From: Escherichia phage pinkbiff
DNA length: 64,000 nucleotides
Direction: 5' to 3' (one strand)
Sequence record: MN850603.1
Shown: positions 2,796 through 9,549 of the stretch, in pieces
Layout: every line of letters starts with the position of its first letter
How positions within the stretch are numbered: position 1 is the stretch's first letter
Position numbers and translations under genes: made by a program
Notes under the pieces: model-generated
Database searches by the model: none
The model's input: the letters and a program-made list of their open reading frames with translations, nothing else
What the model was told of the DNA's origin: nothing

Positions 2796-2871
2796 TGGAG
2801 AATCCGAAGGGACTTGAACCCTTATAAACCTGTTTTGCAGACAGGCACATAGCCATTTCTGTCACGGATTC
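2796..2871 (-). tRNA. tRNA-Cys (GCA)
   Basis: Manual cloverleaf: T-loop TTCAAGT, 7-bp acceptor stem, encoded CCA, anticodon loop CTGCAAA. Confidence 0.75.
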
Positions 2872-2875
2872 AAAT

Positions 2876-2968
2876 TGGAGGAAGATACCAGACTTGAACT
2901 GGTACACCGATTTCTCAGCTACTGGCAGTTTAGCAAACTGCTCCCTTACCTTTTAGGGTTAATCTTCC
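2876..2968 (-). tRNA. tRNA-Ser (GCU), type II
   Basis: 93 nt, long variable arm, T-loop TTCAAGT, CCA encoded, anticodon loop TTGCTAA. Confidence 0.75.
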
Positions 2969-2969
2969 A

Positions 2970-3704
2970 TTATTTCTGCAATGCGTTCTTCATTTCTGGT
3001 GTTGCAATAGAATCGATTACACCAGTTTTACAAGCATCATCAAACCAGTCTGGTAAGATACCTGCTAAGAACCCATTGATATTCGTTTTAAGGTACTCTG
3101 CAATAAGGGCAGCTTCTTCTTCAATCATCTGCACAACTTCATCTGCATAAGCTGTAATCTTTGAAATACCTTCATTAATCTTACTAACAGCTTGGTTAGC
3201 TAAATCAGAAATAGTATCAAGACCTTTATCAATAGCATCCTGTAAGTCACTTAACACATCATTAACACCATCTAGTGTACTGTTAATCGTATCCATAGCT
3301 TTTTGACCATACTCTGTAGCAACACCCATAATACCACTAAACGGTGTACAGCCAACTTGCTCTCCTGCTGCACCCATAACATTGGAATAACCTTTTGCTA
3401 CCTGCATACGTGATGAGAACTCATCAATGGACTTTTGACCGTAATCTGTCAGCGTCTTAGTAGTTGATGTAGTGCTTGTCAGACTCGTTGTAAAGCCATT
3501 AAGCAGAACTGTTGTAAGTCCAGCAGCAACAAGCTTATCCTTTACTGTAGGGTCTGATACAGAGCTAATAGAGTTTACAAGTGATGTAGAGGCAGCTACG
3601 GTTCCACCGAGAACTGCTGCACCAGTAATAAGGGGATTAGAAAACCCTCTACCGGTTTTTAAGAGATTGAAAATCTCCTTACCTTGTTCTGTCATCTCTT
3701 TCAT
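2970..3704 (-). CDS. hypothetical protein (244 aa) embedded in tRNA cluster
   Basis: Long minus ORF; start set to ATG at 3704 because the track start (3767) would overlap the next tRNA. Thr/Ser-rich low-complexity stretches; no motif recognised. Confidence 0.55.
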   Translation of the reverse strand: MKEMTEQGKEIFNLLKTGRGFSNPLITGAAVLGGTVAASTSLVNSISSVSDPTVKDKLVAAGLTTVLLNGFTTSLTSTTSTTKTLTDYGQKSIDEFSSRMQVAKGYSNVMGAAGEQVGCTPFSGIMGVATEYGQKAMDTINSTLDGVNDVLSDLQDAIDKGLDTISDLANQAVSKINEGISKITAYADEVVQMIEEEAALIAEYLKTNINGFLAGILPDWFDDACKTGVIDSIATPEMKNALQK

Positions 3705-3720
3705 TAAGCACCTTTGAAAT

Positions 3721-3796
3721 TGGTAGTCCAGTGGGATTTGAACCCTATTCTCATGTTTTTCAGACACGCGCTTTAACCATATAAGCTACTTGGACT
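3721..3796 (-). tRNA. tRNA-Phe (GAA)
   Basis: T-loop TTCAAAT, CCA encoded, anticodon stem-loop CGTGT-CTGAAAA-ACATG; acceptor/T-stem pairing imperfect, ends approximate. Confidence 0.6.
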
Positions 3797-3802
3797 ATAA
3801 AT

Positions 3803-3878
3803 TGGGGTGACCTACGGGATTTGAACCCGTATAGACCATGTTCACAGCATGGGTCATTACCATTTATGATAAGGCCAC
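3803..3878 (-). tRNA. tRNA-His (GUG)
   Basis: T-loop TTCAAAT, 7-bp acceptor with one G-U, CCA encoded, anticodon loop CTGTGAA. Confidence 0.75.
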
Positions 3879-3909
3879 ATTTAAGGCCTCTCGTAAGAAC
3901 CCTTAGAAG

Positions 3910-3985
3910 TGGCAGCGGCATAAGGATTTGAACCTTAATAGGACAGCTTCAGAGACTGCTGCATTGCCAGTTATGCTATACCGCT
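3910..3985 (-). tRNA. tRNA-Gln (CUG)
   Basis: D-stem GCAT/ATGC, T-loop TTCAAAT, CCA encoded, anticodon loop CTCTGAA. Confidence 0.65.
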
Positions 3986-3990
3986 AAATT

Positions 3991-4069
3991 TGGTACTCCA
4001 TATCGGATTCGAACCGATACATAACACAGATTTTAAGTCTGGCCTCTCTGCCAATTGGAGTAATGGAGC
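3991..4069 (-). tRNA. tRNA with anticodon UAA (Leu-type anticodon; short variable arm)
   Basis: T-arm ATCGG-TTCGAAT-CCGAT, 7-bp acceptor, A73, CCA; anticodon loop CTTAAAA. 79 nt with no long variable arm, so isotype needs confirmation. Confidence 0.55.
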
Positions 4070-4071
4070 AT

Positions 4072-4147
4072 TGGCGGGGGATGTTGGAATTGAACCAACT
4101 TCTTCGATTTCAAAGACCGAGGTTTTAACCTTGTAAACTAATCCCCT
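4072..4147 (-). tRNA. tRNA-Gln (UUG)
   Basis: T-arm GTTGG-TTCAATT-CCAAC, D-arm GTTT/AAAC, anticodon loop CTTTGAA; 1:72 unpaired. Confidence 0.7.
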
Positions 4148-4155
4148 TTAAATCT

Positions 4156-4713
4156 TTACTTTCTCAGTGGATGAATAAAGAATGCCAACATAACTCTTTC
4201 CCTTGAGAATGCTCTTTCTTCTGGGACAACACTTTTTAGTTTCCATCCAACATAGATTCTCCAGTAAAACTGTTTACCAAAGACTTTAATTGACGGAATA
4301 AAAGCGAATAATCCCCAAGCATTGTTGTTCCACATTAGGAGATAACCTGTCTGATTATCTTCGGGGTCAGAACTTACGTTGATATTACCTTTCCACTTAG
4401 TAACATCTTTTACATCTCTTCCTAATACATGGTAAGAGAAGTTATAAGCTTTGTTTCTCCAGAGCCATCCGACTCTCTGCATGTAGACACCCAGCTTACC
4501 AATCTTTCTAATCTTAGCCCATCTTTTAACGTGACCCTCATCACCATCAATTGGGTTGTCATATGTCTCCATCCATCTGAACCCGAAAGGTAAGTGTCCT
4601 TTCTTCTCACTGTAGAATGGAACTACAAAAGGTGCTAAGATAACTGCTAAGATTGCTGCAAATGGCTCTAACAAAGCTAAGAAAATCCATGAAGCATACT
4701 TCAAATATCTCAT
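4156..4713 (-). CDS. hypothetical membrane protein (185 aa)
   Basis: ATG at 4713 with AAGAGG SD; hydrophobic N-terminal segment. Confidence 0.6.
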   Translation of the reverse strand: MRYLKYASWIFLALLEPFAAILAVILAPFVVPFYSEKKGHLPFGFRWMETYDNPIDGDEGHVKRWAKIRKIGKLGVYMQRVGWLWRNKAYNFSYHVLGRDVKDVTKWKGNINVSSDPEDNQTGYLLMWNNNAWGLFAFIPSIKVFGKQFYWRIYVGWKLKSVVPEERAFSRERVMLAFFIHPLRK

Positions 4714-4732
4714 CTAAATAGCCTCTTTAAAT

Positions 4733-4808
4733 TGGCGCAGGATAAGGGATTCGAACCCCTATTAACAGCTTCGTAGACTGTTGCTCTATCCATTTGAACT
4801 AATCCTGC
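4733..4808 (-). tRNA. tRNA-Arg (ACG)
   Basis: T-loop TTCGAAT, 7-bp acceptor, CCA encoded, anticodon stem-loop ACAGT-CTACGAA-GCTGT. Confidence 0.75.
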
Positions 4809-4922
4809 TTACCTACGAGAACACCATACAGTTTTTCACAAACTTTGTTTTTACGTCTGTTTAGGTATGACGCTCTAAACTTTTTTGCGATGGAGTTATT
4901 ACTCATGGTGCTCTCCTCAAAT

Positions 4923-5000
4923 TGGTGTTCCAAGACGGATTCGAACCGTCACTAATACAAGGTTTGAGCTTGCATCCTCTGCCAATTGGGATACTGGAAC
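4923..5000 (-). tRNA. tRNA with anticodon CAA (Leu-type anticodon; short variable arm)
   Basis: T-arm GACGG-TTCGAAT-CCGTC, acceptor 7 bp, A73, CCA; anticodon loop CTCAAAC; 78 nt. Confidence 0.55.
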
Positions 5001-5001
5001 A

Positions 5002-5076
5002 TGGTACTCACTAAAGGACTTGAACCTTTTTCTTCATCTTGTAAGGGTGATGTTTTACCATATAAACTAAGCGAGT
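5002..5076 (-). tRNA. tRNA-Val (UAC)
   Basis: T-loop TTCAAGT, acceptor 7 bp incl. G-U, CCA encoded, anticodon loop CTTACAA. Confidence 0.7.
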
Positions 5077-5171
5077 GTGAAAGAGGTCTGAAGTTGTGCC
5101 GCTAACTCAACTCCGTGGAATTTGTTACGGTCTTCAGTTGACACCAGCGGTCTTTCACTTGACCTCTGAAT
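5077..5171 (-). other. unassigned structured spacer (tRNA-like/ncRNA candidate)
   Basis: 95-nt gap between tRNA-Val and tRNA-Thr flanked by complementary ends (agaggtc ... gacctct); no canonical T-loop found. Confidence 0.25.
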
Positions 5172-5247
5172 TGGTGCTCCCACAAGGATTCGAACCCTGA
5201 TAAGTTGCTTACAAGGCAACCGTAATAGCCAATTATACGATAGGAGC
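5172..5247 (-). tRNA. tRNA-Thr (UGU)
   Basis: T-loop TTCGAAT, CCA encoded, perfect anticodon stem GTTGC/GCAAC with loop CTTGTAA. Confidence 0.78.
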
Positions 5248-5254
5248 ATTAATT

Positions 5255-5329
5255 TGGAGCATCCAGAGGGAATCGAACCCTCAACCTCAGTTTGGAAGAC
5301 TGTAATTTTCCCGTTTAAACTATGGATGC
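5255..5329 (-). tRNA. tRNA-Gly (UCC)
   Basis: T-arm GAGGG-TTCGATT-CCCTC, acceptor GCATCCA/TGGATGC, CCA encoded, anticodon loop CTTCCAA. Confidence 0.78.
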
Positions 5330-5335
5330 ACTAAT

Positions 5336-5411
5336 TGGTGGAGAAGCAGGGAATTGAACCCTGTACTTAAGTTTGCAAAACTTATGTTTTAACCATGTAA
5401 ACTACATCCCC
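5336..5411 (-). tRNA. tRNA-Ala (UGC)
   Basis: Acceptor stem with G3:U70 (Ala identity pair), A73, CCA; anticodon stem TAAGT/ACTTA with loop TTTGCAA. Confidence 0.8.
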
Positions 5412-5417
5412 AATGTC

Positions 5418-5493
5418 TGGTACAGGTGGAGGGAATTGAACCCGTCGTCTTACTGATTAAGAGTCAGCCGCATAACCATTTTGCTACACCTGC
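5418..5493 (-). tRNA. tRNA-Lys (CUU)
   Basis: T-loop TTCAATT, CCA encoded, anticodon loop CTCTTAA; T-stem has two mismatches. Confidence 0.65.
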
Positions 5494-5500
5494 ATTAATT

Positions 5501-5578
5501 TGGTGGGAGACAAGGGATTCGAACCCTCAAACATCTCGTTCTAAGCGAGATAGGTTTACCAATTACCATCAATCTCCC
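5501..5578 (-). tRNA. tRNA with anticodon UAG (Leu-type anticodon; short variable arm)
   Basis: T-arm GAGGG-TTCGAAT-CCCTT, acceptor 7 bp, A73, CCA; anticodon stem TCTCG/CGAGA with loop CTTAGAA; non-canonical D region. Confidence 0.55.
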
Positions 5579-5833
5579 ATTAAATCTTTTTAGAGAACTT
5601 CTAAGAACCTAAGCAACAAGGTTCCACAACAAGCTGTAATAACCTTAGAAGCCCTCTAAAAAGACCTAAAAAGGTCTTTGCATAGTCTTGTTTAATCCGG
5701 TGACTAGAACCTTTGGAGAGCTTGATATTATCTCTTCTCCGTGACACCTACTAGGTGTTTTATCAGTGTGTACGACAATACACGAGGGATACCAAAGCAA
5801 CATCCGAATGAAGCTTGGCTTTAAATCTTATTA

Positions 5834-5923
5834 GGCGGTAAGTAAAGGAGTCGAACCCTCACCGTATCTCTACAGTGGCAACTGTTTTCAAGACAGTTTG
5901 GCTACCATTAGCCGCTACCTACC
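5834..5923 (-). tRNA. tRNA-Ser (UGA), type II
   Basis: About 88 nt, long variable arm, T-loop TTCGACT, perfect anticodon stem ACTGT/ACAGT with loop CTTGAAA; 3' end reads GCC-T, so CCA not fully encoded. Confidence 0.7.
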
Positions 5924-5936
5924 CCTAATAAGACTT

Positions 5937-6019
5937 TGGCATGGGACGGAGGAGTTGAACCCCTTTGAAACGGTTTTGGAGGCCGTTGCTCATGCCTTAG
6001 AGTCTTAACATCGTCCCAT
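5937..6019 (-). tRNA. tRNA-Trp (CCA) candidate, atypical D region
   Basis: Perfect 7-bp acceptor ATGGGAC/GTCCCAT, T-loop TTCAACT, CCA encoded, anticodon loop CTCCAAA; 83 nt with an over-long D region. Confidence 0.5.
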
Positions 6020-6160
6020 ACTATAATTCGAAGCTTACCGTATTATCTCAACACTGTAAAGCTCCTTCTCAGGTTATTTACATGTTCTGGAAACATGAGA
6101 TACAGACCACCTCCCTACAGGAAGACCCGCTTAGGTCGTCTAAGTAATCTGCTAACTAAT

Positions 6161-6237
6161 TGGCACACCCTACAGGATTCGAACCTGTAACTCAATGATT
6201 AGAAGTCATTTGCTCTGTCCAGTTGAACTAAGGGTGC
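6161..6237 (-). tRNA. tRNA-Arg (UCU)
   Basis: D-arm GTTC/GAGC, anticodon stem AATGA/TCATT with loop CTTCTAA, T-loop TTCGAAT, CCA encoded. Confidence 0.78.
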
Positions 6238-6573
6238 ATTAATCTTTAAAGACTCTCTTAGAAAGCCCTTAAAGATGCCCACCTTATTAATCATACCGTG
6301 GGCTAGTACGCCAAATTCTTTGATGAGGGATTGGAAGACCTCACTGGTGTTTAGCCTATCAAGCTACTGCCAGAAAAACATTGTCGTTTGCATTTATTTT
6401 AAATTTGCAAAATAGACGCTACGCAACGAAAACTATTCAGAATATGTACAACAAATTTCCCCACATTGTGTTACGTCTAACACTCATGTATTGGTGTTTG
6501 AATTATACATATTATGAAGTATTTTAGTTACTATAAAGTAGTCACATCTCAATGTCAACAACTTTATTGAAAT

Positions 6574-6649
6574 TGGTACTGGTAGGTGGAATCGAACCAC
6601 CGATGTTCCCTTATCAGGGGAGTGTTATAACCTTCTTAACTATACCAGC
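6574..6649 (-). tRNA. tRNA-Ile (GAU)
   Basis: T-arm GGTGG-TTCGATT-CCACC, CCA encoded, anticodon loop CTGATAA. Confidence 0.72.
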
Positions 6650-6650
6650 T

Positions 6651-6727
6651 TGGAGGTTCAGATGGGAATCGAACCCACATTCATAGGGTTTATGAGACCC
6701 TTGCATTACCTTATCTGCGACTGAACC
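6651..6727 (-). tRNA. tRNA-Met (CAU), elongator-like
   Basis: Perfect acceptor GGTTCAG/CTGAACC, anticodon stem AGGGT/ACCCT with loop CTCATAA, T-loop TTCGATT, CCA encoded. Confidence 0.75.
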
Positions 6728-6731
6728 ATAT

Positions 6732-6807
6732 TGGTAGAAGTGGAGGGATTCGAACCCATCGCCTGTCAGATTAAAAGTCTGCCGCATCACCATTCTGCTA
6801 CACTTCC
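6732..6807 (-). tRNA. tRNA-Lys (UUU)
   Basis: Anticodon loop CTTTTAA, T-loop TTCGAAT, CCA encoded; T-stem imperfect. Confidence 0.68.
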
Positions 6808-6810
6808 ATT

Positions 6811-6956
6811 AAATTATCTTTGTAGATAAGCTACCCAGACTTGCTTAAGGTCTGTAGCGATGTGCCTTTTTGGGTTTAAATCTAGAATTTACCCTTTCAC
6901 CCTTTGTGGTCGCATACTCACAGGTAAGCTTAATAACTTATCTACAAAGATAATTA
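6811..6956. repeat. 18-bp perfect inverted repeat flanking about 108 nt inside the tRNA cluster
   Basis: attatctttgtagataag (6813-6830) and its reverse complement cttatctacaaagataat (6938-6955); no tRNA fold found between them. Confidence 0.6.
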
Positions 6957-7004
6957 CCAGACCGTTGTTTATCATCTTAAGTGCTACCATTACACCAACT
7001 CGAC

Positions 7005-7035
7005 CTCTGCCGAGTGAAGGAATCGAACCTTCTCC
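7005..7035 (-). other. isolated tRNA T-arm-like element (possible tRNA remnant)
   Basis: GAAGG-TTCGATT-CCTTC T-arm followed by a 7-nt acceptor-like strand, but no matching 5' half in the expected position. Confidence 0.3.
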
Positions 7036-7239
7036 TTTTCTTTACCGAGAAATAGATTGTTTAAGTTTTGCTGTAAACGGTCTTCTGTAAATTTGTTGAG
7101 CCAGACCAAGTTTTAAATTTTTTTCAAAATTGAATTGGCTTGAAAATATCATACGTACTTGCTGTATTTGGTCTTCTGCCCCTTTAAAGAATACTCGTAA
7201 GAACTCTTTAAGGGAGGGGCTAAATAGCCCTCTCAAAAT

Positions 7240-7317
7240 TGGCGGTTACGAAGGGATTTGAACCCTCATCATCTCCCGTGACAGGGGAGTATTTTAACCA
7301 AATTAAACTACATAACC
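7240..7317 (-). tRNA. tRNA-Asp (GUC)
   Basis: Perfect anticodon stem CTCCC/GGGAG with loop CTGTCAC, T-loop TTCAAAT, CCA encoded. Confidence 0.75.
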
Positions 7318-7322
7318 TTTAT

Positions 7323-7410
7323 TGGTGTGCCGTGTAGGAGTCGAACCTACCGAGTCTCAATGACAAGGGATTTACAGTCCCCACCGCTACCATCTACGGG
7401 ATAACGACAC
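7323..7410 (-). tRNA. tRNA-Tyr (GUA), type II
   Basis: 88 nt, long variable arm, anticodon stem GGGGA/TCCCT with loop CTGTAAA, T-loop TTCGACT, CCA encoded. Confidence 0.72.
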
Positions 7411-7478
7411 ATTTAATTTCTATTCAGGCTAAGGACTTGCACCTTACAAATCGGTGAGCAATCGCTTCTCTCCTAAAT
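7411..7478 (-). other. unassigned 68-nt spacer with variant T-arm-like hairpin
   Basis: AAGG-TGCAAGT-CCTT hairpin but no complete cloverleaf. Confidence 0.2.
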
Positions 7479-7479
7479 T

Positions 7480-7556
7480 TGGCGGTTAGTCAGGGATTCG
7501 AACCCTGTGCCATTCGCTTAACAGGCGACCGCACATACCTTATGTGCTTCCTAACC
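7480..7556 (-). tRNA. tRNA-Asn (GUU)
   Basis: D-arm GCAC/GTGC, T-arm CAGGG-TTCGAAT-CCCTG, CCA encoded, anticodon loop CTGTTAA. Confidence 0.72.
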
Positions 7557-7639
7557 ATGTTTAGTATTACCAGACCGTATCTTTCAATTTTTCCGCTAAA
7601 AATTTAATAAATATTGCTGTAAACGGTCTTCTGTAAATT

Positions 7640-7716
7640 TGGAGGCGGGTGCAGGAGTCGAACCTGCCGATACCATGCTAATGAGACATGTGAGACGCCC
7701 TTTCTCTATACCCGCA
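7640..7716 (-). tRNA. tRNA-Met (CAU), second copy (initiator or Ile2-type possible)
   Basis: T-loop TTCGACT, CCA encoded, anticodon loop CTCATTA, 1:72 unpaired (T:C). Confidence 0.6.
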
Positions 7717-7806
7717 ATTCTTAATGACCAGACCAAATATCTTCTTTGTCCGATTTCGTGTCAGATGAGTAGATTAAGTTTGCTGTAATTGGTCTTCTGT
7801 CAAAAC

Positions 7807-7884
7807 TGGCGTTCCAGAAGGGATTTGAACCCTCAAATATCCACTTTGAAAGAGTGGTGACTTTACCATTTTGTCTACTGGAAC
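7807..7884 (-). tRNA. tRNA-Glu (UUC)
   Basis: Perfect acceptor GTTCCAG/CTGGAAC, anticodon stem CCACT/AGTGG with loop CTTTCAA, T-loop TTCAAAT, CCA encoded. Confidence 0.75.
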
Positions 7885-7891
7885 ATTAATT

Positions 7892-7968
7892 TGGTCTCTG
7901 TTGGAGGACTTGAACCTCCGGCCTTACCGCCCCAAACGGAACGCTCTACCAAGCTGAGCTAAACAGAG
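7892..7968 (-). tRNA. tRNA-Pro (UGG)
   Basis: Canonical D-arm GCTC-AGCTTGGTA-GAGC, T-arm GGAGG-TTCAAGT-CCTCC, CCA encoded, anticodon loop TTTGGGG. Confidence 0.75.
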
Positions 7969-8133: not shown

Positions 8134-9549
8134 TTACCAGATGTAACGGTCAATCATTACTGCTTTGAGCATTACACTGATTGGGTCAAACTTCTCACCA
8201 CCAAGCAAAGCTTTTAAAGTGGCTGGAGAGAAACCAGATACCATTGCTACACCGTTATCCTTAACAGACACTTCGCAAGTACCATTACGGTTTGCTAAGT
8301 ACCAGAATACCAGTTGTGGCATTTCGTATCCAGCTTTCTTGTACTTACTCTGAATTGCTTCAAAGTTTGTACGACCGTTAGCTCCATCAACCTGATTGAA
8401 CTCCATATCAGAGAAGATGATAAGCTTACTTGGCATATCTTTCTGAGTCAAGTTGTTTCTTTTACCTACCTCAAGAATGCGGTCAAAAGCTGCCTGTAAG
8501 TTAGTTGAGCCATATTCAACGTGTCGCATCACCTGACGATGACGGTTTCGTAAATCACCACTCAGTTCAATGAAGTGAGGGTTTGTTGAATAAACCATCA
8601 ACTCATCCTTAAAGCAACCTGTATTGCGTTCTGCTACATACAAGGCAAGTGATACGCCAATATCAAGGGCAGTGATTGAACCAAGATTCACCCAAGACAT
8701 TGAGCTTGAAACATCAGTCATACACAAGATGTTCTCACCTTCTGCCATCCAGTTTGGTAGTGCTTTCCACTGCTCATTGGCAACATCTGCATTACCATGC
8801 TTGATAGACTTAATCACATCGTATGGATAAACAGCACCAGCGTTAATCTTAGACTCACCCTTTGAGAGTGATTCGATGTAAGCTTTGTAACGTTCTCCAT
8901 CTTTGCGGTTAAAGAGCTTTTGGTAACGTGCAGCAGCGAGTGAAGGAATCTTGCTGTAGTCAATCTTACCAAACTCATTAGCAGAGATTTTTTGCTCAAC
9001 CGTATCAGACAGTGCAGATAACAGTGTGCGGTACTCTTTCTCACTCAAGTTGGCAAACTTGCAGAAACGTTTTACAAACTGCTTATGACGTGGTTTGACT
9101 CGTGGTAACCACTTAGCTGCCAAACCTGCTGTTGCAGGGTCTAGTAATGCTGCCTCTAAATGTTTGAAGGCATCCGTCTCGAAACGAGTACCTACGAAGA
9201 TTTTGAAGTCATCAAAACGACCAAGTTCTGCAATCTTATCCATAATGCGAAGAACCTGTGTAGGCTCTAAAACTTTATCTTCAATTGCTTGAAGTAAAAC
9301 AGTTCGGAAAGCTTTACGCTCACCCATACCTTCCCGTACATCTCGCATATGCAGTAAAATACGAACTGCAACATCAACATCCTCATGCAAAGCTTTGTAG
9401 AACAGGTCTGGTAAGATTTCTACATTGCTACGGCTTGAGCCAGCGGCTTTGTAAAAGTCTACCAGAGCAGACATTGATGAAGTATGGTTTACAGCACCAT
9501 TTTCAGTCCGACCTGCATGAAGGTGTGCATGTTTAAATAACTCGCTCAT
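8134..9549 (-). CDS. vWA-domain protein with MIDAS motif (471 aa); Ro60/TROVE-like architecture possible
   Basis: ATG at 9549 with GGAGAG SD; C-terminal region carries DxSxS (DVSSSMS) and a downstream SDMEF, typical of von Willebrand A metal-ion-dependent adhesion sites; helical N-terminal 280 aa. Confidence 0.7.
   Translation of the reverse strand: MSELFKHAHLHAGRTENGAVNHTSSMSALVDFYKAAGSSRSNVEILPDLFYKALHEDVDVAVRILLHMRDVREGMGERKAFRTVLLQAIEDKVLEPTQVLRIMDKIAELGRFDDFKIFVGTRFETDAFKHLEAALLDPATAGLAAKWLPRVKPRHKQFVKRFCKFANLSEKEYRTLLSALSDTVEQKISANEFGKIDYSKIPSLAAARYQKLFNRKDGERYKAYIESLSKGESKINAGAVYPYDVIKSIKHGNADVANEQWKALPNWMAEGENILCMTDVSSSMSWVNLGSITALDIGVSLALYVAERNTGCFKDELMVYSTNPHFIELSGDLRNRHRQVMRHVEYGSTNLQAAFDRILEVGKRNNLTQKDMPSKLIIFSDMEFNQVDGANGRTNFEAIQSKYKKAGYEMPQLVFWYLANRNGTCEVSVKDNGVAMVSGFSPATLKALLGGEKFDPISVMLKAVMIDRYIW

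Follow-up and report, generated by a model that had tools for sequence, protein, structure and literature searches.

What are the short sequences that recur between the tRNA genes of Escherichia phage pinkbiff? The window analysed here, a stretch of 64,000 nucleotides (nt) from record MN850603.1, resembles Escherichia phage finno at 99% identity (genus Felixounavirus) and carries 26 tRNA genes (2796-7968); these encode the CCA in every case and all lie on the minus strand. A reading made from the letters of the window (the sequence-only reading) had noted a 28-nt motif recurring in the tRNA spacers and had proposed that its copies are internal promoters or, alternatively, processing signals. 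The copies sit in the first block of the tRNA cluster, and the motif is the 5' half, a helix strand followed by a box, of four small structured RNA genes on the minus strand (units A-D; Table 1). These units are probably Y-RNA-like partners of a phage Ro60 homolog encoded beside them, freed by tRNA processing.

The recurrence itself was borne out. The exact 28-mer, TTGCTGTAAACGGTCTTCTGTAAATTTG, is present twice in the window, at 7068-7095, as first placed, and at 7614-7641, corrected from 7612-7641, against none expected from 100 shuffles; the two diverged copies had been located correctly to within a few bases (7162-7180 and 7779-7806). A degenerate 20-nt core, CAGAAGACCNNNTACAGCAA, occurs in four copies without mismatch (7068-7087, 7159-7178, 7614-7633 and 7780-7799), all on the minus strand. 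Even with up to three mismatches allowed, 0.20 copies are expected and no shuffle contained four. Read on the tRNA strand, the core has the layout CAGAAGACC-NNN-TACAGCAA, where NNN is a variable triplet. Overlooked until now, every core copy has a complementary partner, NNN'GGUCUGG, 60-130 nt downstream on the same strand (GGTCTGG at 7728-7734, 7570-7576, 7101-7107 and 6957-6963), and NNN' complements the variable triplet of its own core (CGU with ACG, CAA with UUG). Two copies had been said to end at a tRNA 3' terminus, which holds on the plus strand only; on the coding minus strand they begin there, copies A and B starting 3-4 nt past the encoded CCA of tRNA-Glu (end 7807) and tRNA-Met (end 7640).

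When each unit was folded separately, one common structure was predicted. It comprises a 4-base-pair (bp) outer stem, an asymmetric internal loop with a 5' AGA opposite a single 3' G, and an inner stem of 7-8 bp in which AGACCNN(N) pairs with (N)NNGGUCU and which always opens with A-U and G-C. A single-stranded box, U-U/A-A-CAGCAA, directly follows the inner stem in all units, and the interiors are variable, with short hairpins in units A-C and a tRNA-like domain in unit D. Unit A starts 4 nt past the CCA of tRNA-Glu and ends 8 nt short of tRNA-Met; unit B starts 3 nt past the CCA of tRNA-Met and ends 10 nt short of tRNA-Asn. K-turn and bulge-helix-bulge readings of the AGA/G loop were rejected, as the loop lacks tandem G.A pairs and the opposite strand carries no second bulge. 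A minus-strand scan for intrinsic terminators (a GC-rich hairpin with a U tract) found none at any unit. Searching the window against Rfam, at the gathering score as well as at E values up to 10, gave no Y_RNA or other relevant family beyond tRNAs; Dictyostelium class I was hit at units A and B, but weakly (E 1-4.5) and only through a stem-plus-loop shape.

Table 1. Positions in the window of the four RNA units, their structural elements, the neighbouring Ro60-like gene and the promoter matches
Feature	Position	Strand	Sequence or description	Evidence
Unit A, short Y-RNA-like hairpin RNA	7725-7802	minus	78 nt	Fold, covariation, model R1 (E = 1e-8)
Unit A, outer stem	7802-7799 with 7728-7725	minus	UGAC with GUCA	
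Unit A, AGA bulge	7798-7796	minus	AGA	
Unit A, bulged G	7729	minus	G	
Unit A, inner stem	7795-7789 with 7736-7730	minus	AGACCAA with UUGGUCU	
Unit A, box	7788-7780	minus	UUACAGCAA	
Unit B, short Y-RNA-like hairpin RNA	7567-7636	minus	70 nt	Fold, outer-stem compensatory change, model R1 (E = 1e-10)
Unit B, outer stem	7636-7633 with 7570-7567	minus	UUAC with GUAA	
Unit B, AGA bulge	7632-7630	minus	AGA	
Unit B, bulged G	7571	minus	G	
Unit B, inner stem	7629-7623 with 7578-7572	minus	AGACCGU with ACGGUCU	
Unit B, box	7622-7614	minus	UUACAGCAA	
Unit C, short Y-RNA-like hairpin RNA	7098-7181	minus	84 nt	Fold, model R1 (E = 1e-5)
Unit C, outer stem	7181-7178 with 7101-7098	minus	GGGC with GCUC, including one G.U pair	
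Unit C, bulged G	7102	minus	G	
Unit C, inner stem	7174-7168 with 7109-7103	minus	AGACCAA with UUGGUCU	
Unit C, box	7167-7159	minus	AUACAGCAA	
Unit D, YrlA-like RNA	6954-7090	minus	137 nt	Fold, RNAalifold, compensatory changes
Unit D, outer stem	7090-7087 with 6957-6954	minus		
Unit D, inner stem	7083-7077 with 6965-6959	minus		
Unit D, bulged G	6958	minus	G	
Unit D, box	7076-7068	minus		
Unit D, V hairpin	7056-7033	minus		
Unit D, T arm	7032-7016	minus	GAAGG-UUCGAUU-CCUUC	
Unit D, closed acceptor-like hairpin	7015-6998	minus	ACUCGGC-AGAG-GUCGAGU; 7 bp, tetraloop	
Unit D, D arm	6995-6981	minus	GUGU-AAUGGUA-GCAC, after a UG dinucleotide	
Ro60-like protein gene	8134-9549	minus	471 amino acids; DUF2828 and DUF7788	Pfam, AlphaFold/Foldseek, synteny
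Sigma-70-like promoter match	8115-8087	minus	TTGACA-17-TAATAT	Consensus scan, 10/12
Sigma-70-like promoter match	8024-7995	minus	TTGACA-18-TAAAGT, with upstream TG	Consensus scan, 10/12

Unit D is, by its predicted fold, a tRNA mimic of the YrlA type. Compared with a tRNA cloverleaf, its acceptor stem is closed by a 4-nt loop and the terminal stem takes the place of the anticodon arm. The nucleotides of the tRNA elbow can be read from the sequence (U8, A14, G18G19, U54-U55-C56, A58 and G53-C61, with a T loop UUCGA), and RNAalifold independently predicted the same five helices. Neither ARAGORN nor the Rfam tRNA family (RF00005) called the interior of unit D a tRNA, which it escapes because of its permuted topology and closed acceptor stem. 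The 'tRNA-pseudo' annotations in related records were considered as labels for unit D and proved to be Asp and Tyr tRNAs.

Covariation argues that this fold is maintained in RNA. Among 29 Felix-like genomes, 25 carry all four units (exact motif) downstream of the same neighbouring gene, and the other four carry two or three. The outer stem of unit B changes from UUAC/GUAA to UUGC/GCAA in relatives, a compensatory replacement, and across units the same stem also reads UGAC/GUCA and GRGC/GCUC. Pairing was quantified over 18 distinct modules, drawn from Felix-like phages and from L034, a relative at 48% identity (its inner helices are AGAGCAC, AGAGCAGU, AGGACAC and AGAAG, and its 3' arms were placed by eye): 96.5% of cells were paired, versus 72% in shuffles and 26-44% in slid registers. 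Changes on both sides affected 9 of 11 pairs, and the observed values were reached in none of 500 shuffles. Both stems of the module covary; one clade has ACACGU-UACG-GCGUGU as the acceptor-like helix of unit D, a replacement that alters both sides of two pairs. Some pairs are G.U, a pattern compatible only with RNA of the tRNA strand. A covariance model (R1) built from the short units, with unit C absent from its training alignment, recovered units B, A and C in the window (E values in Table 1) and gave no other significant match there.

The gene next to the units encodes a protein with the predicted fold of Ro60. Its open reading frame (ORF) ends 166 nt before tRNA-Pro, and unit A starts 332 nt downstream of the gene. 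Pfam finds only DUF2828 and DUF7788 in the product, which PHROGs labels 'RNA-binding protein'. An AlphaFold model built with 38 homologs reached a predicted local distance difference test score of 88, and its top 11 Foldseek matches in the PDB were all Ro60, Rsr or phage Ro60 structures, aligned over the full length of the model with probability 1.0 and template modelling scores of 0.5-0.64. Xenopus and human Ro60, Deinococcus Rsr and Ro60 of Thermus phage phiLo are among them, with isolated vWA domains lower in the list. The protein is laid out as helical repeats followed by a vWA domain with an invariant MIDAS motif DxSxS (D279, S281, S283). By synteny, the gene is the ortholog of bas63_0130 (Bas63 gp130), reported in the PhageMaP preprint to be structurally like Ro60 and to counter the Ppl defence system (PMC11482910, 2024); its authors suspected Y RNAs among the annotated tRNA genes and named none. 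Both promoter matches of Table 1 lie between the Ro60-like gene and tRNA-Pro and, judged by their sequence, are the likely source of a transcript carrying the tRNAs and units A-D.

The association of module and gene was examined in distant phages, in 80 loci whose homologs are 29-48% identical to the 471-amino-acid (aa) protein. The gene lies within 6 kilobases (kb) of tRNA genes in 29 of the 80, with the tRNAs on the gene strand in all but one. In the box test, made with no prior selection on pairing, the 7-mer ending 3 nt upstream of each distinct CAGCAA was taken and its exact Watson-Crick complement sought 20-200 nt downstream. Boxes on the gene strand and at most 1.5 kb from the gene had the complementary 7-mer in 60 of 148 cases. 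The same boxes gave 0/148 when searched in the upstream direction and 2/148 with shuffled 7-mers; on the opposite strand the count was 2/305, and inside the gene 0/52. An initial, looser descriptor (6 or more of the 7 inner pairs, G.U allowed) had been given up for the exact test because its background was too high, with 154 plus-strand matches, 82 minus-strand matches and about 45 in shuffled sequence. Enrichment of k-mers around the distant genes had yielded AT-rich words only. A fifth match of the generic test in the window itself (4457-4675, minus strand), with the AG...CU-G signature, falls inside a 185-aa membrane-protein ORF (4156-4713) and probably arose by chance.

By the strict test, a unit lies near the gene in 43 of the 80 loci, including 23 of the 51 without any tRNA, and the units of distant loci are mostly within 400 nt of the gene, on either side. 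Across 930 kb of distant loci R1 gave 62 matches, every one of them on the gene strand; the box test and R1 combined place at least one unit in about 55 of the 80 loci. The distant consensus reads (U/A)(A/U)A - A72 G90 R - NNNN - N U93 W - CAGCAA ... NNNN Y C90 U72 - G95 (numbers are percentages): the sequence of the helix is free, and the fixed elements are the A-U/G-C base of the helix, the G after its 3' strand and the box. Unit lengths are bimodal (58-80 nt and 85-220 nt), and many of the long units have a T arm, a closed acceptor stem and a D arm. Rfam at the gathering score returned no relevant family for the units in the 11 distant loci searched.

Four long distant modules show a further resemblance to tRNA. 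In L075 (7521-7640), L066 (7415-7549) and L103 (7788-7922 and 10477-10611), the loop closing the acceptor-like stem consists of N-CCA plus 2-4 nt (G-CCA-AUU, A-CCA-UGA, C-CCA-AU and CCA-ACUA), resembling the 3' CCA end of one tRNA joined to the 5' end of the next; such loops fit the published idea that YrlA originated from dimeric tRNA transcripts (bioRxiv 10.1101/312249). Within the loops of short distant units, AGCAA recurs 13 times, in 9 of 34 units (for instance L046 4558, L092 5829, L083 3952 and L070 12875), where 1.5 occurrences are expected and none of 500 shuffles gave more than 6; the excess suggests a single-stranded motif that is read more than once. Elsewhere, a permuted tmRNA (L055 1353-1676, 71.7 bits) and a group I intron (L054 11696-11922, 71.5 bits) lie a few kb from the Ro60-like gene.

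In architecture and genomic context, the units behave as YrlA (unit D) and as YrlB or Yrl1/Yrl2 (units A-C), short of a CGAA-type motif, an Rfam match and a TROVE partner. YrlA, known from Salmonella Typhimurium, Mycobacterium smegmatis and mycobacteriophages (PMC4201824; structure in bioRxiv 10.1101/312249), is defined by the order V-T-AS-D, a U-purine linker preceding the D arm and a Y-U-A-Y at the junction of stem and V region (PMC4201824; bioRxiv 10.1101/312249). Like YrlA, unit D adjoins a Ro60-type gene, replaces the anticodon stem with an end-pairing stem and runs from a V stem-loop through a T arm, a closed acceptor-like stem-loop and a two-nt linker starting with U to a D arm; the Y-U-A-Y at the stem/V junction fits the 'UUAC' that opens its box. 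Unlike YrlA, it lacks GNCGAAN0-1G and conserves instead an AG/CU-G junction with the box UWCAGCAA; its presumed partner comes from DUF2828/DUF7788 rather than Pfam TROVE, and its gene lies inside a tRNA array. Its binding by the protein and its modification are putative. Units A-C resemble YrlB of Salmonella and Yrl1/Yrl2 of Thermus phage phiLo (PMC12135203) in being short, without a tRNA-like domain, multi-copy beside a Ro60 gene and built as stem-bulge-stem, but the CGAA motif of the phiLo and Salmonella RNAs is absent from them. The phiLo RNAs were identified by position and fold beside a phage Ro60, and their binding to the protein and to PNPase was demonstrated by experiment (PMC12135203); units A-D are known from sequence and predicted fold.

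Metazoan Y RNAs (RF00019) share with the units a length of about 70-140 nt, a terminal stem with a 5'-strand bulge, a variable loop and a partner of Ro60 fold; they differ in their GGUCCGA/UUGACU helix, absent here, in the missing Rfam match and in their transcription and processing. Small stable RNAs of obscure function are also found among the tRNA genes of phage T4, whose species 1 and 2 (RNA C and D) are freed by tRNA-processing enzymes; no Ro60-like partner is known for them. In the literature on DUF2828, and on Felixounavirus together with Ro60, we found no description of the present RNAs beyond the PhageMaP conjecture.

The identification of units A-D as Y-RNA-like partners of the Ro60 homolog thus draws on what the sequences and models display: the repeats, a predicted fold with covariation, a tRNA-like anatomy, the Ro60 fold of the neighbour and the linkage of gene and module. 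Expression as discrete RNAs, binding by the protein and function are argued from the anatomy, the linkage and known Ro60-Y RNA systems (PMC4201824; PMC12135203). In the mechanism we propose, the sigma-70-type promoters upstream of tRNA-Pro would drive transcription of the tRNAs and the units together. Because the units begin at tRNA 3' ends and leave only a few nt free ahead of the following tRNA, their release would fall to the enzymes that excise the flanking tRNAs, with RNase P cutting at tRNA 5' ends and RNase E or 3' trimming acting in the AU-rich spacers; the RNAs so freed would be trimmed to the terminal stem. The suggestion of processing signals in the sequence-only reading therefore stands in part, in that the motif marks RNA starts beside tRNA 3' ends, but the motif belongs to the product and not to a discarded signal. 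The Ro60-like protein would bind the units through the conserved junction and box, and they would serve it in the way that Y RNAs serve Ro60, as a gate or as a tether to another factor; unit D may offer its tRNA elbow to such a further factor. As gp130 of Bas63, a close relative, counters Ppl, the ribonucleoprotein (RNP) would probably be an RNA-metabolism or anti-defence module, by analogy.

Several observations weigh against this assignment. The published Ro60-binding motifs (GNCGAAN0-1G, GGUCCGA and CGAA) are absent from the units: those of Felix-like phages read UUACAGAAGACC (ACAGAAG), distant relatives read (U/A)AA-AGR, for example UAAAGG, and no CGAA occurs in any. The kinship of the protein to Ro60 is one of predicted fold only; phmmer and a profile search of PDB sequences gave no significant Ro60 match, and Pfam no TROVE domain. 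Outside Felix-like phages the outer stem is poorly conserved, for which the arrangement of distant units may account: they often stand in head-to-tail arrays of 2-5 copies (as at L103 7379-7519, L054 5700-5817 and L030 5672-5902), abutting or overlapping by a few nt, so that the outer stems of neighbours cannot all form simultaneously. Finally, the module of L066 at 5727-5838 encloses a tRNA-Thr of normal topology (ARAGORN; Rfam 52.9 bits) and not a permuted mimic.

A further counterpoint comes from the reverse direction. Partial contig stretches in IMG/VR were searched with a generic box pattern, AAAGGATNNNTACAGCAA; a stem was present in 31 of 82 matches, and a DUF2828 gene lay in the same stretch for 12 of these 31 structured matches versus 2 of the 51 unstructured ones. 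The gene was on the strand of the motif in 14 of 14 cases, and both unstructured cases were within 450 nt of it. The other 19 structured matches have no DUF2828 gene in the partial stretch, and all six of those inspected lie in co-oriented tRNA clusters. Such matches would be expected if the units were stable small RNAs of the tRNA cluster, independent of the Ro60-like protein, with the module serving another partner or RNA stability, in which case they would be akin to species 1 and 2 of T4; the missing canonical Ro60-binding motif agrees with this, and the recurrence of AGCAA in loops hints at a reader of single-stranded RNA. We nevertheless consider independence from the protein unlikely. 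The units stand a few hundred nt from the gene and on its strand in the 43 distant loci counted above, tRNA-free loci included, whereas unstructured chance matches are rarely near it. The stretches are also partial, so that the gene may lie elsewhere on the contig, as it does for two of the 19 (L112 and L181).

It is still less probable that the module is a leader-trailer processing cassette, the form that the processing signals of the sequence-only reading would take, whose flank helix directs an endonuclease to excise the enclosed tRNA, tRNA-like RNA or hairpin. The abutment of units A and B on tRNA 3' ends, the 8-10 nt between unit ends and the next tRNA, and the ordinary tRNA-Thr enclosed in L066 would suit such a cassette. 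Classical RNase III substrates, however, present a duplex of roughly 20 bp, far above the 11-12 bp of the helix here; a processing stem for RNase III was rejected on the same ground, as about two near-continuous helical turns are needed and the stems of 4 and 7 (or 8) bp are broken by a 3/1 internal loop. The best-conserved part of the module is the single-stranded box, on the side of the supposed cargo, most interiors lack conservation, being AU-rich loops of 25-40 nt in which no product is obvious, and the module stands beside the gene also where tRNAs are absent.

That the copies are internal sigma-70 promoters driving downstream tRNAs (TTTACA/TTGACA, a spacer of 16-19 nt and an AT-rich hexamer), as the sequence-only reading had offered, is very improbable. 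The elements it cited are present, TTTACA-N18-TATTTA in copy B and TTTACA-N18-AACTTA in copy D; copy B scores 9/12 in a lenient scan (TTTACA-16-AATATT), and copy A holds a perfect TTGACA. The other three copies nevertheless fail the lenient sigma-70 scan: copy A has its best -10-like hexamer at a distance of 19 nt, and copy C has GGGGCA in place of a -35 element. The -10-like hexamers vary among close relatives, and the -35-like hexamer is the helix strand itself, its changes compensated 60-130 nt downstream through the outer-stem exchanges described above, so the constraint is on RNA pairing and not on a promoter. In distant relatives the helix and the CAGCAA box persist but a -35-like hexamer is absent, and two better matches already lie upstream of tRNA-Pro. 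DNA-level repeats, either terminal inverted repeats of miniature mobile elements or recombination or homing sites in the tRNA cluster, are barely credible: short inverted repeats do flank each unit and the interiors do differ, but strand specificity is strict (all 62 matches of the model; 60 against 2 in the box test), the G.U pairs would be C-A mismatches on the other strand, the helix varies freely in sequence without losing its pairing, conservation extends to the asymmetric box and bulges, and the units hold the same positions in 25 of 29 Felix-like genomes.

Two other elements lie among these tRNA genes. Between unit D and tRNA-Lys, the minus strand at 6812-6955 contains another structured RNA, about 145 nt long, which has a 22-bp closing stem and is conserved in all Felix-like genomes. 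Many compensatory changes separate its two clades (GUAGAUAAG/CUUAUCUAC versus GCAGUGAC/GUUACUGC; CAGAC/GUCUG versus CAAACC/GGUUUG), the loops UUCUAGAUU and UUARGCAAG are conserved, and Rfam gave no match for it. Two small Bas63 ORFs annotated as 'hypothetical protein', bas63_0137 and bas63_0138, run on the opposite strand over this RNA and unit D and are probably spurious. The 69-nt spacer between tRNA-Asn and tRNA-Tyr (7411-7479, minus strand) holds a T-arm-like hairpin, AAGG-UGCAAGU-CCUU, and may represent either a tRNA in decay or an additional small RNA.

Conservation of Ro60-Y RNA particles extends from bacteria to humans, but their functions are poorly understood. Units A-D are the best candidates yet for the RNA partners of the phage Ro60-like protein, and exact coordinates and a structural model are now available for four candidate RNAs in a genetically tractable E. 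coli phage. Their recognition module is unlike the canonical Ro60-binding motif and is common to many distant phages with the same protein family. We tentatively raise a wider possibility, to which we give somewhat less than even weight: Ro60 homologs of the DUF2828 type and 'CAGCAA-box' RNAs, often in arrays and some of them permuted tRNA mimics with an N-CCA acceptor loop, may form a widespread, undescribed class of phage RNP that spans many unrelated tailed-phage lineages, uses a recognition module unlike that of all known Y RNAs and serves as an anti-defence or RNA-surveillance device. If so, given the action of gp130 against Ppl, the RNAs might be required cofactors or tRNA decoys. Whether gp130 binds these RNAs, whether they are needed for its anti-Ppl effect and what the tRNA-like unit recruits are now directly testable.

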